NCBI GenBank assembly: GCA_015370545.1
Contig: GCA_015370545.1_3932.1
Reading direction: 5' to 3' (one strand)
From: a phage
Length of the DNA stretch: 64,000 bases
The stretch's first letter is position 1. The number at the start of each line of letters is the position of its first letter. A program made the position numbers and the translations under genes. This document shows positions 7,615 to 29,756 of this stretch, in pieces. A model generated the notes under the pieces. It was not told the origin of the DNA and did not search any database. It saw only the letters and a list, made by a program, of their open reading frames with translations.

Positions 7615-8100
7615 ATGAATTACATGGAGATTCGACCATTTGACACAGCTAATGGTGAAGGGGTTCGTGTAAGCCTCTTCGTAGCTGGTTGTAAGCATCA
7701 CTGTGAAGGTTGCTTTAATAAGGAATCTTGGAAGTTTAATGCTGGTAAAGAGTTCACTTATGCAAACCTTTATGGCATCATTAAGTTAATGAATGATAAT
7801 GCCATCAGTGGGCTGTCAATACTTGGTGGAGAACCTCTGGATGATAGAAACATTCAAGAGGTTACCAACATATGCAAACGTATTAAAACCGTTTACCCAG
7901 AAAAATCTATCTGGCTCTGGACAGGTTTTCAGTTACACGAAAAAATTCACCTAGATGTGATGAAATATATTGACGTGGTGATTGATGGTAAGTATGATTC
8001 ATCTAAACCAACAGTTAAACCATATCGTGGTTCTGATAACCAAAACCTCTGGAGAAAAGAGTATGGGTGGCAAGGTGATTGTCAGTGGCGAGCCGAGTAA
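7615..8100 (+). CDS. nrdG: anaerobic RNR activating enzyme (radical SAM)
   Basis: 161 aa; CKHHCEGC radical-SAM cysteine cluster near N-terminus; follows nrdD. Confidence 0.85.
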   Translation: MNYMEIRPFDTANGEGVRVSLFVAGCKHHCEGCFNKESWKFNAGKEFTYANLYGIIKLMNDNAISGLSILGGEPLDDRNIQEVTNICKRIKTVYPEKSIWLWTGFQLHEKIHLDVMKYIDVVIDGKYDSSKPTVKPYRGSDNQNLWRKEYGWQGDCQWRAE

Positions 8101-9658: not shown

Positions 9659-10123
9659 ATGATTTTTTGCAATTCCCAGAAGCATGTAATAGAGATTCTA
9701 TATAAGGAGTTTGGTACAGAGAACACCTTTGACTCAAATGAAGCAATTGATGTACTAAGAGAAAAAAGCCTCTTTATAAGAGGTCAATCAATTAACAATG
9801 CTCGTGGCTACCTAACAGTGCTAAGGCAATCCGGTGTACTGATAACTGTAGGCCAAATAAAAAGTAAGGGGAGACTAAGCATCAACCAGATTAACCGAGC
9901 TTTTATGGAGAAACACCCACAACTATCACGAATGTTAGATGATGGACATGGGGAGGTAAAGAGCCTTCAAAAAACAACCTCGACCGATGTTAATTCAGTT
10001 GACATACAACCAGATGTTAGGTATTTTATTGAGGATGTGATGTTTAAAACAATGGATGAAGCAGTTGAACACTGTAAAAAACATCTGATTAAAGTTAAAC
10101 GTGCAAAGATTGTTTGGGAATAA
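9659..10123 (+). CDS. hypothetical protein, tandem paralog 1
   Basis: 154 aa; shares ILYKEFGT..FDSNEAI and C-terminal YFI..MF.T..AVE.CKK..IK.KR.KI.WE with 10157-10609. Confidence 0.5.
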   Translation: MIFCNSQKHVIEILYKEFGTENTFDSNEAIDVLREKSLFIRGQSINNARGYLTVLRQSGVLITVGQIKSKGRLSINQINRAFMEKHPQLSRMLDDGHGEVKSLQKTTSTDVNSVDIQPDVRYFIEDVMFKTMDEAVEHCKKHLIKVKRAKIVWE

Positions 10124-10156
10124 TACTTCAAAAACTTCTATTGAGAGAAAAAGAAC

Positions 10157-10609
10157 ATGTTAAGTTCATTTTACATAGCACTGACTGAGATTCTATATAA
10201 AGAATTTGGTACAGATACCATCTTTGACTCTAATGAGGCTATAAAAGCTCTCAGAAGTGGAAGTGACTGCCTAAGTAAAAGCCCTATAGCAAACATTCGG
10301 TATTACTTGACCACAATGCGTAAAATGGGGCTACTGATGGCTGTAAGTCAGGGAACAAAAGACTGTGCTTCTCTATACCTAAACCAACTAAATAAAATGA
10401 TGATAGAGAGCGACCCACAACTATCAAGACTACTTGATAGTGTTGACAAAACTAATAGGAATACAAGAACATCAAAACCAAAAGGTGAGTTCCTCCCTGA
10501 TGCAAAATACTTTATTGATGAACTAATGTTTGATACCATAGAAGATGCAGTTGAGTATTGCAAAAAGAATATTATTAAGTTGAAAAGAAAGAAAATTATT
10601 TGGGAATAA
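10157..10609 (+). CDS. hypothetical protein, tandem paralog 2
   Basis: 150 aa; paralog of 9659-10123. Confidence 0.5.
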   Translation: MLSSFYIALTEILYKEFGTDTIFDSNEAIKALRSGSDCLSKSPIANIRYYLTTMRKMGLLMAVSQGTKDCASLYLNQLNKMMIESDPQLSRLLDSVDKTNRNTRTSKPKGEFLPDAKYFIDELMFDTIEDAVEYCKKNIIKLKRKKIIWE

Positions 10610-10635
10610 AACTACCATTATCGAGAGAGAAAACT

Positions 10636-11517
10636 ATGAAAACATCTATCCGTGTTACAGTTCATTCACCAACTAAAGGAACTCATGAAGAAGAGTTTAA
10701 CATCATCCAATTTCCTTCTGGTGAGATTGGTGGACACTTTTCGCCAGAGTTTGTTGATTTCACTGCTTATGCAGCATCATCCATCAACAATGTGATTATG
10801 ATTGTAAAAGGTTATGATAAGGATACATTGTTTGCTGTGGCACTTGCTAAAGAAGCAATTGATGATTTAATTCCTCATGGTTATGCTTTAAAGACTGTCA
10901 TCTTTTACTACTTACCAAATGCACGTTATGACCGTCACATGTTTAAAGGCGACGCAGCAGCTTTAAAGGTTTTTGCTAAACAGGTAAATGCAATGGGATT
11001 TGGTGCAGTCTGTGCAGTTGACCCTCACAGCTATGTACCAGATAACCTGTTTAACTGCTTCCAGAGTATTCCTCAAAAGGAAATTGCAGTCCACTATGCA
11101 AATGACCCACTGATTGATTACTTAGTAGCCCCAGATGCAGGTGCTGCTAAGAAGATTGCAGAGACTGCTAAAGAGGTGGATAAACCATATATCACAATGT
11201 CTAAAGTACGCAACCTTAAGACTGGTGAAATTACTGGTATGCGAATCCTTGATGATGTTGATTTGACAGATAAAACCGTCATGATTCTGGATGATATCTG
11301 TGATGGTGGTCGAACCTTCATAGAAGCAGCTAAACATCTTCGTGAAGCAGGTGCAAAACGTGTGGAACTCTATGTAACACACGGTATCTTCTCTAAAGAT
11401 GTTGAAAACCTTCTTGACAATGGCATTGACCACATCTACACTACAAACTCTTTAGGGGAAGCTAAAGACCGTGGCTTAACACATTATGGTCAAGTTACTG
11501 TAGCAAACCTTGATTGA
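10636..11517 (+). CDS. Prs-family pyrophosphokinase (PRPP synthetase-like; possibly ADP-ribose diphosphokinase Adps)
   Basis: ILDDICDGGRTFIEAAKHLREAGAKRV matches the Prs PRPP-binding loop; start at ATG 10636. Confidence 0.75.
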   Translation: MKTSIRVTVHSPTKGTHEEEFNIIQFPSGEIGGHFSPEFVDFTAYAASSINNVIMIVKGYDKDTLFAVALAKEAIDDLIPHGYALKTVIFYYLPNARYDRHMFKGDAAALKVFAKQVNAMGFGAVCAVDPHSYVPDNLFNCFQSIPQKEIAVHYANDPLIDYLVAPDAGAAKKIAETAKEVDKPYITMSKVRNLKTGEITGMRILDDVDLTDKTVMILDDICDGGRTFIEAAKHLREAGAKRVELYVTHGIFSKDVENLLDNGIDHIYTTNSLGEAKDRGLTHYGQVTVANLD

Positions 11518-11525
11518 AACTTTAT

Positions 11526-11548
11526 AGGGGCTTAAAAGCCCCATTTTG
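11526..11548 (+). terminator. intrinsic terminator or attenuator
   Basis: GGGGCT-TAAA-AGCCCC hairpin followed by ATTTTG. Confidence 0.55.
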
Positions 11549-11562
11549 AGAGAGATTAAAAG

Positions 11563-13344
11563 ATGACTAAATCACTTTATGCAGTACCAGCAGGTTTAAA
11601 CGCAGATGCTTACAAATCTGGTCATGTTTACCAGTACCCTAGTGCAACAGAGTACTTGATGTTCAACCTGACACCACGTAGTGACAAATGGTTTAACAGC
11701 CCCTTAGCAATTGATGGTGTAGTAGCTTTTGGTATTCAACGTTTCGTTAAAGATTACTTGATAGACCACTGGAACGCCACTTTCTTTGAACGTGATAAAA
11801 AAGAAGCCATTGATGAAATCTTAGAAGTCATGAATGGTGTTCTGGGTAAAGATGCTATCGGTCGAGAGCATTGGGAAGCACTTCACGACTTAGGTTATCT
11901 ACCAGTTGAAGTATACGCTGTAGAAGAAGGTACAGTTGTTCCTATGCGTGTACCAATGATTGTCTTCCAGAACACTGTTTCAGGTTTCCATTGGGTAGCG
12001 GGATATCTGGAAGATGCTTTCTCTGCTGAGATTTGGAAGGCTTGTACCATTGCAACTATTGCATTGCATTATAAACGCATCTGTAAGAAGTGGGCTGACC
12101 TTACTTGCGACAATGACTTACATTTACCTTATCAGTGCCATGACTTTGCTATGCGTGGTATGTCCGGCTTTACTGATGACGCATTTAACGCTGTAGGCCA
12201 CTTAACCAGCTTTAAAGGGACTGATAGCTTCCCTGCTGTATATACAGCTAAACGCATCTACGGACAGTCTTACCAAGTCTCTGATATTGGTGGTTCTGTA
12301 CCAGCCACTGAACACTCTGTAATGTGTGCAAACATTGCTTGGGAAGGTGGTAATGAGTTGGTTGAAGAAGAAAGACGCTTTAAAGGTGAGTTACAAACCT
12401 TCCGTCGTTTCTTAACAGAAACTTACCCAACGGGTATTGCAAGTGTTGTTTCAGATACTTATAACTTCTGGAGAACTGTGTCAGAAATCTTACCAGCACT
12501 CCGTAAAGAAATTATGGAACGTGATGGCAAACTGGTAATTCGTCCTGACTCTGGAGACCCTGTACACATTGTCACAGGTTATAAAACAATCCACTTAGAG
12601 TGTGCTAAAAAGGCTTATTACGAGCACCTAAGTAAGCTGGAAGCCAGTGACGCAATGCTGAATGCTGTTCTGAACATGAAGCTTGAAAACATCAGCTATG
12701 GTATTGCTGGATGGCTACTGTCAGAAGGCTACGAAATGGTTGTTGACAGAGAAGACTTTGAAGTTGCTGATACAGTGCTGTTGAAGAACGCTTATATGGT
12801 TGGCTCTGCAAACGTTGTAACACGCCCTGTAGCAGAGATTGATGGAGCTATTAAGACCTTGTATAACATCTTTGGAGGAACTATCAACTCTAAAGGTTTT
12901 AAGGTACTGGATGAGCACATTGGACTTATCTATGGTGACTCTATCACGTTGGAACGTGCAAACGAAATCCTGAAGCGTCTGTATGAAATGGGGTTTGCAA
13001 GCTCTAACGTGGTGTTTGGTGTAGGCTCTTACACTTACCAGTACATGACTCGTGACACCTTTGCATTTGCTGTCAAAGCAACTCTTGCAAGCATTGGTGG
13101 CAAAGAGATTATGCTTGCAAAAGACCCTAAAACAGATAGTGGTGTTAAGAAATCTGCCTTTGGTGGTGTAGCACCTATGTGGGATGGTGAGAATTTGAAA
13201 GCTGTAGATGGCTACGGATTCCAGAGCTTTGCAGATGCACTTGACCACCCAGCTTGTGCTTTACGTTTAGTCTTTAGCAACTCTGAGCAGTTCGGTTACA
13301 CATCTCTTGGTGATATTCGAAATAATATTGACAAGCAGCTTTAA
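11563..13344 (+). CDS. nicotinamide phosphoribosyltransferase family protein (NAMPT/NadV-like; possibly Namat)
   Basis: 593 aa; N-terminus MTKSLYAVPAGLNADAYKSGHVYQYP recalled as NAMPT-family-like; adjacent to Prs-like gene. Confidence 0.75.
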   Translation: MTKSLYAVPAGLNADAYKSGHVYQYPSATEYLMFNLTPRSDKWFNSPLAIDGVVAFGIQRFVKDYLIDHWNATFFERDKKEAIDEILEVMNGVLGKDAIGREHWEALHDLGYLPVEVYAVEEGTVVPMRVPMIVFQNTVSGFHWVAGYLEDAFSAEIWKACTIATIALHYKRICKKWADLTCDNDLHLPYQCHDFAMRGMSGFTDDAFNAVGHLTSFKGTDSFPAVYTAKRIYGQSYQVSDIGGSVPATEHSVMCANIAWEGGNELVEEERRFKGELQTFRRFLTETYPTGIASVVSDTYNFWRTVSEILPALRKEIMERDGKLVIRPDSGDPVHIVTGYKTIHLECAKKAYYEHLSKLEASDAMLNAVLNMKLENISYGIAGWLLSEGYEMVVDREDFEVADTVLLKNAYMVGSANVVTRPVAEIDGAIKTLYNIFGGTINSKGFKVLDEHIGLIYGDSITLERANEILKRLYEMGFASSNVVFGVGSYTYQYMTRDTFAFAVKATLASIGGKEIMLAKDPKTDSGVKKSAFGGVAPMWDGENLKAVDGYGFQSFADALDHPACALRLVFSNSEQFGYTSLGDIRNNIDKQL

Positions 13345-13358
13345 AAGTATATGATAAG

Positions 13359-13382
13359 AGGCTCCTACGGGAGCCTTTTTAA
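13359..13382 (+). terminator. intrinsic terminator
   Basis: AGGCTCC-TACG-GGAGCCT hairpin followed by TTTT. Confidence 0.7.
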
Positions 13383-21124: not shown

Positions 21125-21910
21125 ATGGGTATTGTAAAAATAATTAATGGTGATATCTTTGCCGCATTTGATAAAGGTAAGTTTGACATCATCGGTCACG
21201 GTTGCAACTGTATGAATTTAATGAGTGCAGGTATCGCTGACAAGATTTCTAAACTTTACCCAAAAGCATATGAGACCGATACAGAAGTTTATCTGTATGC
21301 AGGTGGTATAGGACACAAACCCTGTGAAAATTTACTAGGTAATTTCTCTGTAGCACGTTTAAAACAAGGTCGTATAGCTAATCTTTACACTCAGCTTAAG
21401 ACTGGTAAAGATGCCCGATACAGTGCTTTAGAGTCATCTTTGAAACAGCTTAACAGATACTGTGAAGTTAATCAGTTGAAGAAAGTTGGGTTACCTATGA
21501 TTGGTGCAGGTATCGGTGGACTTGACCCTCAAGCCGTTACCGTTATCATTAATCAGGTGATGAAGAGTGTAGATGTGTATCTGTATGTCTACGAAGGAGA
21601 GATGTACCACAAGTTACGCTCAGGTTGGAATAACTACTGCGAACCAGAATACTTTGCAGGTGTAGTAACGTTCACAGACAATGCAGTTACCCTCTTCAGA
21701 CGAAGAAAAGGTAAGATACATCAAAGTAACCCTCCGGTTGAAAAGATGTCTCTAAGTAACGCTCTAGTTACCCACCTGTCGAAGAGCAATCACAGAATTG
21801 CAGTAACATTTGGCAGTGATGCAGACACATATATCTATGCAAGGACTGATGAAGATATCGAGGAGATTTTCTCATCACAAGAAGTTACCTTCTTAGACGC
21901 AAAGAACTAA
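21125..21910 (+). CDS. macro-domain protein (Poa1p-like)
   Basis: 261 aa; N-terminal IIGHGCNCMNLMSAGIA matches the H-x-CNC...G-x-GIA signature recalled from yeast Poa1p. Confidence 0.6.
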   Translation: MGIVKIINGDIFAAFDKGKFDIIGHGCNCMNLMSAGIADKISKLYPKAYETDTEVYLYAGGIGHKPCENLLGNFSVARLKQGRIANLYTQLKTGKDARYSALESSLKQLNRYCEVNQLKKVGLPMIGAGIGGLDPQAVTVIINQVMKSVDVYLYVYEGEMYHKLRSGWNNYCEPEYFAGVVTFTDNAVTLFRRRKGKIHQSNPPVEKMSLSNALVTHLSKSNHRIAVTFGSDADTYIYARTDEDIEEIFSSQEVTFLDAKN

Positions 21911-28152: not shown

Positions 28153-29756
28153 CGTCTATCGAATCCTTATACAATCCCTTTCCCTTTCCTTTCTAGAATC
28201 TTATCAGACCTTAAAAAGCAATAACTCTATAGTCTACTCTATAACCTCTTATCAAATCAACTTAAATATAAGCCAATAACCCCAGAAAGGGGATGGCCCA
28301 TTAAAACGCTCTATAAAGCTCTATAACAGCCTTATCAACCTAACTTAAGCAATCATATTAACCCACTCTAAAAAGCCCTTTATAGAGCTTCCCAGAGCCT
28401 TAAAAGAATCTTATAAGGGTGAAAGCTTATAGGCTGGCTAGTATCTTGTGAATAACTAAACAATCCCCTTGATAGTCACTAAAAAGCATGTTATAGGGGC
28501 TATAAAGTTACTTCAAAGTAACGTAAAAAAGGCTATAAAGTTACGTAAATGCTAGCCCCCTTAACATTTTCTTAACAATTTCTTAACAATCCCTACATAG
28601 TTATGCTTGTTAGAGACTTGTTAGCCCCTTGTTAAATCTCTGTTACAACCATGTAAAAGCCTTGTAAGAACCTTTGACATAGCCTTAAAAGCCCTGTAAA
28701 GCCCTATAAAGAGCTATCCATACAGTTGGGCTGTAGTTACTAGGGAGAGACTTAAAAGGGGCTATACAGAGCTATAGAGGGCTTTTAAGAGGTATGTTTA
28801 AAGAATCACTAAGAATCAAAGGGAACGATAAGAAAAGAGATAGTGACCATGTTAATAGCTTGTTAAAAAGATTAAACACTTGTTAGAAACTTGTTAATTA
28901 TCCCTACAAAATAACTCTTTAAAATTAACTTGTTAGCTCTTGTTAGTCATCTGTTAAGACTCTGTAAAGACTATTCAGCACTTGTTAGAAAACTGTTAAG
29001 TTCTTGTTAGTTCTGTTAAGAAACTGTTAAGACCTTTGGAGAGTTGTTAAGAGCTTGAGAGAGTTGTTAAGAGATTGTTAAGGATATTTTAAAATTCTGC
29101 AAAGTACTTGTAAGGGAGCTGTTAAGGGCTACCAAGCAGATATACATCTTCTACAGATATTTTTCAGTTCCTTCAAAGACCCTAAAAAATGACTTGATAG
29201 CCCTATTTTATAAAAATTTTAAAATTCTGAATAATTACCTAGACAGTCTTTTAAAAATACAGGTAGAAACAGGCTTATAAGATACCTTGTTAGTACCGTG
29301 TTAGACCTTGTGAGATAAGGTCTGTGAAGATATTCCTGTTAAGTTTGTTAAAACAGTCTATATAGAGGCTTAGTAGTACCTAGTGAACATCTATAGAGGG
29401 TATCATAGCTAACCTAGAGATTAAGAGGTGTATAGGGGCTTCTAAGAGGGTATAGAGAGATGGTTAAGGTGATTGTATAGGTTGTTAAGAAGGATTGTTA
29501 GAAGAGTGTTTAGAGGGCTATTTAGAAGGGTTATACAGAGGGCTATTAAGACCACTAGATAGTTACTAAGATACTATATAGTACTATATAACTATATAGA
29601 GAGTAAGATTAAGAAGGTTGTTAAGAAGGATAGATATCTTATTCACATATGATGGTGACCCAGAGGTTGGGACAACCGATAAAATTTTATAAAAATATAA
29701 ATTTCGTAAATTTTACTCAATAAAAAGCCCCCAATTAAGGAGGCTCTTAAGATATT
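28153..29756. repeat. ORF-free region dense in short direct repeats (iteron-like)
   Basis: no ORF of 60 aa or more in 1.6 kb; roughly 25-30 copies by eye of CTTGTTAG / CTGTTAAG / GTTGTTAAGA, plus GCTATAAAG, CCTTAAAAG and TTTTAAAATTCTG repeats. Confidence 0.7.

Follow-up and report, generated by a model that had tools for sequence, protein, structure and literature searches.

A predicted NAD+ reconstitution operon in a Felixounavirus genome

We examined a stretch of phage DNA of 64,000 nucleotides (contig GCA_015370545.1_3932.1 of GenBank assembly GCA_015370545.1), hereafter called the window, which is a large piece of the genome of a Felixounavirus (FelixO1-like, Ounavirinae). The preliminary description of this sequence had placed a Prs-family gene and a NAMPT-family gene side by side at positions 10636-13344, and both open reading frames (ORFs) were recovered at exactly these coordinates on the plus strand. 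Judging from sequence comparisons with characterized homologs, the 2 genes are very probably adps and namat, the genes for the 2 enzymes of nicotinamide adenine dinucleotide (NAD+) reconstitution pathway 1 (NARP1). The locus contains the following features.

10636-11517, plus strand: adps, gene for an ADP-ribose pyrophosphokinase (Prs-like), the predicted first enzyme of NARP1; 293 amino acids, start codon ATG at 10636, stop codon TGA at 11515-11517
11518-11562, plus strand: spacer of 45 nucleotides between adps and namat, which holds a hairpin and the ribosome-binding motif GAGAGAGA
11563-13344, plus strand: namat, gene for a nicotinamide ADP-ribose transferase (NAMPT-like), the predicted second enzyme of NARP1; 593 amino acids, start codon ATG at 11563
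12580-12843, plus strand: insertion mini-domain inside namat (about amino acids 340-427), which has no counterpart in SPbetaL1 Namat or in NAMPT
13356-13379, plus strand: intrinsic-terminator-like hairpin with a 10-bp stem followed by a T-run, located 12 nucleotides past the namat stop codon and identified in a terminator scan

The best match to the DNA at positions 10600-13344 among the phage records was Escherichia phage SP22 (98.8%), followed by the wV8 group (97.5%). The segment was matched by 252 phage records, with at least 80% of its length covered in 225 of these, and the occurrence of the adps-namat pair is therefore far beyond chance.

Orthology to the operon in phage Bas63

The 2 proteins were found to be orthologous to the products of genes 79 and 80 in phage Bas63 (JohannRWettstein, MZ501086.1), which also belongs to Felixounavirus. 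The Adps protein showed 79% identity to Bas63_0079 in a gapless alignment of 293/293 amino acids, and the Namat protein 97% identity to Bas63_0080 over 593/593 amino acids, likewise without gaps. The 2 loci have the same gene order, the same protein lengths (293 and 593 amino acids) and the same spacing of 45 nucleotides, and are flanked by nrdG upstream and by rIIA and rIIB downstream. The C-terminal domain of Adps was 97% to 100% identical between the 2 phages, whereas the window contained another allele of the N-terminal domain, with only about 60% identity over amino acids 1-90. Bas63 also lacks 2 paralogous ORFs (9659-10609) that are located directly upstream of adps in the window.

Bas63 genes 79 and 80 constitute the operon in which NARP1 was discovered; its deletion lowered plating about 20-fold on cells with SIR2-HerA, and ADP-ribose pyrophosphate (ADPR-PP) was seen only with wild-type Bas63 in combination with the defense system (bioRxiv 10.1101/2024.02.11.579819). 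The suggestion in the preliminary description that the genes are a candidate pair for NAD+ reconstitution, with Adps and Namat as one option, is thus borne out by the orthology. NARP1 has already been described, and the pair in the window is a known system in the genus of its first discovery, with no new biology. The NARP1 preprint by Osterman et al. reportedly appeared later in Nature (2024).

Sequence signatures of Adps

The protein encoded by the first gene (ORF 10636-11517) exceeded the cut-offs of the Pfam families PF00156 (45.1 bits) and PF14572 (40.1 bits), indicating a Prs-like phosphoribosyltransferase fold, and it was 99.7% identical to the SP22 protein. A neighbor-joining tree was inferred from the Adps proteins of an ICP1-like phage, SPbetaL1, FADO, and Bas63 along with Prs from E. 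coli and 9 other gammaproteobacterial Prs sequences. The window protein grouped with the SPbetaL1, FADO, ICP1-like, and Bas63 enzymes, and was placed beside Bas63 in a clade delimited by biochemically characterized enzymes. This Adps clade was monophyletic in 100 of 100 bootstrap replicates versus the 10 gammaproteobacterial Prs sequences. The adps gene adjoins the namat gene on the same strand across the 45-nucleotide spacer, and 97% of the members of the Adps clade have been reported to have the gene beside a Namat gene.

Residues of known importance in the ICP1 Adps protein (PMC13586617) were traced in the window protein. The catalytic lysine in the β-hairpin, K185 in ICP1 and K162 in SPbetaL1, corresponds to K190 in the window, and the substitutions K185A and K162A abolish Adps activity (PMC13586617; bioRxiv 10.1101/2024.02.11.579819). 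The acceptor-groove residues R87, H121, D161, D212, D213, and D216 of ICP1 are represented by the identical residues R97, H131, D167, D219, D220, and D223, and the stacking residue F18 by F26 in the motif FPSGE. A first alignment of 4 sequences had put F18 opposite T16; this was rejected, as the larger alignment places F18 at the conserved F26. The PP loop of the window protein, DDICDGGRTF, begins with the same DDICDG as in ICP1, as compared with DDMIDTGGTL in Prs, whereas its tail is GGRT rather than the GAAS of ICP1. The 2 proteins also share the lack of the C-terminal helices of Prs, but were only 39% identical over the C-terminal two thirds.

The elements that mark canonical Prs were missing. 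The sequence ARYDRHMFKGD stands in place of the arginine-rich regulatory loop ARQDRRVRSARVP, and the protein ends ahead of the Prs segment LAEAIRRISNEESISAMF, so that helices α11-α12 are lacking. In a comparison with the NCBIfam models, the broad subfamily model for ribose-phosphate diphosphokinase (TIGR01251) scored 121.6 bits against a cut-off of 113, whereas every Prs equivalog model was far below its cut-off, for example 103 versus 296. Neither an equivalog-level score nor the arginine-rich loop, the DDMIDTGGT PP loop, or the C-terminal helices of canonical Prs were thus observed.

Sequence and fold signatures of Namat

The protein encoded by the second gene (ORF 11563-13344) matched PF04095 with 121 bits and PF18127 with 25 bits (the NAPRTase family and the NAMPT N-terminal domain in Pfam), as well as the NCBIfam model NF006629 with 469 bits. 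Its best sequence matches in the Protein Data Bank (PDB) were the structures of SPbetaL1 Namat (9W5W/9W5X, E = 5e-128), ahead of NadV from H. ducreyi (HdNadV, 7e-104), Xanthomonas (Xcc) Nampt (1e-52), and mammalian NAMPT (4e-40). The same order was obtained from the fold: an AlphaFold2 model (predicted local distance difference test score, pLDDT, 93.2; predicted template modeling score, pTM, 0.91) was closest to 9W5X/9W5W, with a template modeling (TM) score of 0.95 on the target, and these structures ranked ahead of HdNadV and human NAMPT. The preliminary description had proposed phylogenetic placement against the characterized enzymes as a check, and in our comparisons no clustering with housekeeping Prs or NAMPT was seen, Adps falling in the fully supported clade described above and Namat nearest to 9W5W/9W5X.

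Namat has been defined by a selectivity clamp that consists of the SCH motif and a variable SCL loop, in which R, K, or Y occupies the third position; when it is K or Y, the next residue, the fourth, stacks against the adenine, and Bas63 Namat is cited as an example of this K/Y type (PMC12774641). The window protein carries the SCH motif GSYTYQYMTRD at amino acids 488-498 and the clamp loop S40-D41-K42-W43, which is the same as in Bas63 Namat. The motif is missing from the canonical enzymes, which have GAQTYQRNTRD (H. ducreyi NadV) and GGALLQKVDRD (Xanthomonas Nampt) instead.

The residues that contact NAD+ in SPbetaL1 Namat were mapped by hand on a HMMER alignment. Conserved in the window protein were D15, Y17, F195, R198, D221, A248, H251, R327, D329, G458, D459, G488, S489, T496, R497, and D498, a set that includes the NAMPT catalytic core with the catalytic histidine (F195, R198, D221, H251, R327, D329). 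Two conservative changes were observed, A196 for S190 and S460 for A362; the contact made by SPbetaL1 A362 is through the backbone, and the kind of contact made by S190 is unspecified (PMC12774641). The window protein differs from Bas63 Namat at 16 residues, none of which is an NAD+-contact residue.

The insertion of about 85 amino acids (amino acids 340-427) was confidently modeled as a small α/β domain, for which no fold match was found. It is a weak possibility that it adds a regulatory or protein-binding function that is missing from SPbetaL1 Namat.

Similarities and differences to other homologs

SPbetaL1 NARP1 (9W5W/9W5X, PMC12774641) is likewise a 2-gene operon, and its proteins share the catalytic and clamp residues, the fold (TM score 0.95), and the SCH motif with the window proteins. 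However, the sequence identity in local alignments was only 36% for Adps and 43% for Namat. SPbetaL1 Namat is 491 amino acids long and lacks both the 85-residue insertion and a 15-residue insertion near amino acids 258-272; its clamp loop has R40 where the window protein has K42-W43, and SPbetaL1 Adps has the loop sequence DDLSSFG in place of DDICDG.

The canonical enzymes, E. coli Prs on the one hand and human NAMPT, Xanthomonas Nampt, and H. ducreyi NadV on the other, have the same folds and core catalytic residues as the window proteins. In local alignments, Adps was only 29% identical to E. coli Prs and Namat only 24% identical to human NAMPT, and the region of canonical NAMPT that is equivalent to the SCH motif lacks the aromatic adenine clamp.

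Some additional homologs were noted. The annotated Namat protein of the ICP1-like Vibrio phage JSF17 (3607-5100 of the JSF17 stretch) is 439 amino acids long, lacks the first 55 residues or so, including the clamp loop, has the motif GSYTYQYVTCD rather than one ending in TRD, and is preceded by an ORF of 37 amino acids just upstream. The namat gene may be damaged or misannotated in that isolate. Proteins resembling Namat (about 496 amino acids) were found on chromosomal contigs of Cronobacter and Klebsiella, and others resembling Adps (about 285 amino acids) on contigs of Cronobacter and Superficieibacter; this bacterial set of Namat and Adps was 46% to 49% identical to the window proteins. 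These sequences are consistent with the bacterial and prophage NARP1 copies reported previously (PMC12774641). Finally, the PHROG profile phrog_12872 (547 positions, "nicotinamide phosphoribosyl transferase") matched Adps with its own positions 77-224 and Namat with its positions 360-534, which raises the possibility that Adps and Namat are fused in some phages.

Proposed pathway and alternative explanations

In the proposed pathway, a host defense system (SIR2-HerA, DSR1/2, type I Thoeris, or SEFIR) would split NAD+ into ADP-ribose and nicotinamide. Adps would then attach the β,γ-pyrophosphate of ATP at position 1'' of the terminal ribose in ADP-ribose, yielding ADPR-PP, and Namat would exchange the pyrophosphate of ADPR-PP for nicotinamide, producing NAD+ directly, without a nicotinamide mononucleotide (NMN) intermediate or host salvage enzymes. 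The gene structure, the orthology, the clade membership, and the conserved catalytic and specificity residues were established in this analysis, whereas the chemistry and the anti-defense phenotype come from the work of others on homologs, some closely and some distantly related. The SPbetaL1 and ICP1 Adps proteins convert ADP-ribose and ATP to ADPR-PP in vitro without making phosphoribosyl pyrophosphate (PRPP), and the preference for ADPR-PP over PRPP and the direct synthesis of NAD+ were shown for SPbetaL1 Namat only. The preliminary description held that sequence alone cannot tell which chemistry applies. This was too cautious, since the published signatures of Namat (PMC12774641) and of Adps (PMC13586617) are both present; together with the orthology to the Bas63 operon, which has been characterized by genetics and metabolomics, they settle the predicted Adps and Namat chemistry as far as sequence can. 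We infer that the window allele, with an Adps N-terminal domain unlike that of Bas63, behaves as the characterized homologs.

Several observations weigh against this assignment. The in vitro biochemistry comes from the SPbetaL1 and ICP1 homologs, which are just 36% to 45% identical to the window proteins, and Bas63 Adps itself purified poorly (bioRxiv 10.1101/2024.02.11.579819). Over amino acids 1-90, the identity of the window Adps to Bas63 was only 57% to 63%. The adenine-stacking residue F92 of ICP1 is out of register and aligns with M102, with F103 adjacent; an aromatic residue at this position is not a family-wide trait, because SPbetaL1 Adps also lacks one. The outgroup in the tree consisted of gammaproteobacterial Prs sequences only. 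The PDB sequence matches of the Adps ORF were ordinary Prs proteins (E = 2e-18 to 1e-12), because the Adps structures (PMC13586617) are not in the PDB set that was searched, and this result taken alone would point the wrong way. Finally, Namat retains PRPP-dependent synthesis of NMN in vitro (PMC12774641; bioRxiv 10.1101/2024.02.11.579819).

The last observation bears on classical salvage, according to which a true PRPP synthetase and a true nicotinamide phosphoribosyltransferase would produce NMN, with NAD+ completed by host NadR or PncC/NadD. This explanation agrees with the scores for TIGR01251 and NF006629, with the names of the Pfam families, and with the GenBank gene names prs and nadV, in addition to the formation of NMN from PRPP by Namat homologs. 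However, SPbetaL1 Adps gave no product in a PRPP-synthetase assay (ribose-5-phosphate and ATP according to the figure legend) and made ADPR-PP from ADP-ribose, and Namat yielded only NAD+ when offered both substrates. The window proteins have the signatures of Adps and Namat, lack the regulatory elements of Prs, and fail the Prs equivalog models. We therefore consider classical salvage improbable as the function of the pair. It is possible as a minor side activity, because Namat homologs make NMN from PRPP when ADPR-PP is absent.

An arrangement of the NARP2 type, as in Vibrio phage KVP40, in which PRPP is used by a NAMPT-like enzyme to form NMN and the step to NAD+ is carried out by an NMN adenylyltransferase (Nmnat) of the phage, is even less probable. 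The NAMPT fold is common to both pathways, and relatives have historically been annotated as NadV with a resemblance to KVP40, but the window protein has a Namat-type SCH motif. Moreover, about 94% of the NARP2 Nampt genes co-occur with an Nmnat gene, and no phage has been reported to contain both pathways. A Pfam scan of 38 ORFs in the window revealed no NMN adenylyltransferase or Nudix domain, and no NMN adenylyltransferase is named in the annotation of the wV8 genome, the sole check beyond the window; the enzyme by which NARP2 is recognized was thus missing from both. The wV8 protein gp115, annotated in RefSeq as "NAD synthetase" (28610-29107 in the wV8 sequence, outside the window), was dismissed as a candidate, as it is a misannotated SegE-like GIY-YIG endonuclease (PF19835, E = 9e-28).

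NARP1 is a broad counter-defense against any immunity that kills by cleaving NAD+ to ADP-ribose and nicotinamide. Correct calling of NARP1 genes aids the prediction of host range, for example of therapeutic FelixO1-like phages against E. coli and Salmonella with SIR2, DSR, or Thoeris systems. In practical terms, the assignment is of use for annotation: nearly all of the 252 GenBank records name the products "ribose-phosphate pyrophosphokinase" and "nicotinamide phosphoribosyltransferase", and therefore imply the wrong chemistry.

Diversification of the adps gene

The N-terminal domain of Adps, which contributes to binding the adenine of ADP-ribose, differs between the window and Bas63 also at the DNA level. 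In a megablast search, the first 311 nucleotides of adps did not match Bas63, whereas the other part of the operon showed about 93% DNA identity. The synonymous divergence (pS) from Bas63 in the 5' part of the gene (10636-10910) was 0.85 and thus saturated, which suggests that the N-terminal segment is recombinant and that recombination within adps gave rise to the distinct 5' allele. The ratio of nonsynonymous to synonymous divergence (pN/pS) was 0.32, 0.21, and 0.07 along adps, and both genes in the operon are under purifying selection (0.07 to 0.32). Positive selection on the diverged N-terminus was rejected, as pN/pS did not exceed 0.32. The window allele is the commoner of the 2 in the databases, with 125 phage records at least 95% identical to it.

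That the allele is impaired, such that the diverged N-terminal domain no longer binds ADP-ribose productively, might be read from the low identity to Bas63 over amino acids 1-90 (57% to 63%) and the saturated pS of 0.85, but is hardly conceivable for the commoner allele, in which none of the mapped catalytic and acceptor residues is altered and pN/pS is at most 0.32 throughout.

Both 5' alleles of adps are common among the Felixounaviruses.

An unlinked gene for a Macro-domain protein

In an extended variant of the pathway, NARP1-AP, the core genes for Adps and Namat are separated by a gene for a Macro-domain phosphatase, Adpp, as in Vibrio phage Gary and its relatives; NARP1-AP is reported to defeat the defense system aRES (bioRxiv 10.64898/2026.01.28.702374). 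The aRES product is ADPR-1''-phosphate, for which Adpp is a phosphatase. The window shares the core Adps and Namat genes with NARP1-AP, but the ORFs that flank adps and namat encode no Macro domain, and the gene order by which NARP1-AP is defined was thus not observed. The Macro gene in the window is located 7.8 kb away, beyond rIIA and rIIB and outside the operon.

This ORF (21125-21910, plus strand) encodes a Macro-domain protein of 261 amino acids (PF01661, 29.5 bits), which is annotated as "phosphatase" in relatives. Its identity to the Macro protein of Vibrio phage Pontus, whose gene is located between those for Adps and Namat, was 27% (E = 2e-12), and the 2 proteins had the same profile of PDB matches, with OARD1/TARG1 as the best. 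At its C-terminus, the window protein is extended by an additional region of about 100 amino acids. Members of this Macro family are also common outside NARP1, in many phages that lack the pathway.

It is a doubtful possibility that the locus represents a split NARP1-AP, in which the unlinked Macro protein would turn ADPR-1''-phosphate into ADP-ribose for use by Adps. Alternatively, the protein might act like DarG and reverse ADP-ribosylation. If the pathway were indeed split, genome scans that consider only neighbors in the operon would underestimate the number of aRES-resistant NARP1 phages.

Gene structure and neighboring genes

The motif GAGAGAG precedes the ATG codons of both genes. The copy upstream of adps is a ribosome-binding motif at 10623-10629, and the motif GAGAGAGA, read from the sequence at 11548-11555, is located ahead of the namat start codon. 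An alternative TTG start codon for adps at 10600 was rejected, since homology to the relatives begins only at about 10620, the annotated orthologs are all 293 amino acids long from the ATG, and GAGAGAG precedes the ATG at 10636.

The hairpin in the spacer, read from the sequence as GGGGC-TTAAAA-GCCCC at 11527-11542, was not accepted in the terminator scan, its T-run being too short. The hairpin at 13356-13379, a strong one, is likely the 3' end of the transcription unit. A promoter scan was uninformative, with 22 promoter-like sites versus 15.7 +/- 3.9 expected, and no promoter is therefore claimed. A gene for an HNH homing endonuclease is located between adps and namat in several relatives, such as Mushroom, pinkbiff, and VpaE1_ev78.

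The upstream neighbors are homologs of nrdA, nrdB, nrdD, and nrdG (nrdG-like ORF at 7615-8100; wV8 annotation), and the term nucleotide-metabolism module used in the preliminary description is a fair one. The genes for rIIA and rIIB are located downstream of namat.

The tandem paralogous ORFs immediately upstream of adps (9659-10123 and 10157-10609, plus strand) encode proteins of 154 and 150 amino acids with 47% mutual identity, both of which belong to PHROG 29478, a family of no known function. Neither ORF had a match in Pfam that would mark it as a known anti-defense gene. The ORF pair was absent at this position in Bas63, SP22, and wV8, and was identified in only 16 phage records, one of which, phage Pr103Blw, matched at 98.8%. 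The segment 9659-10609 looks like a variable accessory slot beside the anti-defense operon.

Farther downstream, 26 tRNA genes are clustered at 39412-44688 on the plus strand, as is typical of FelixO1-like phages.

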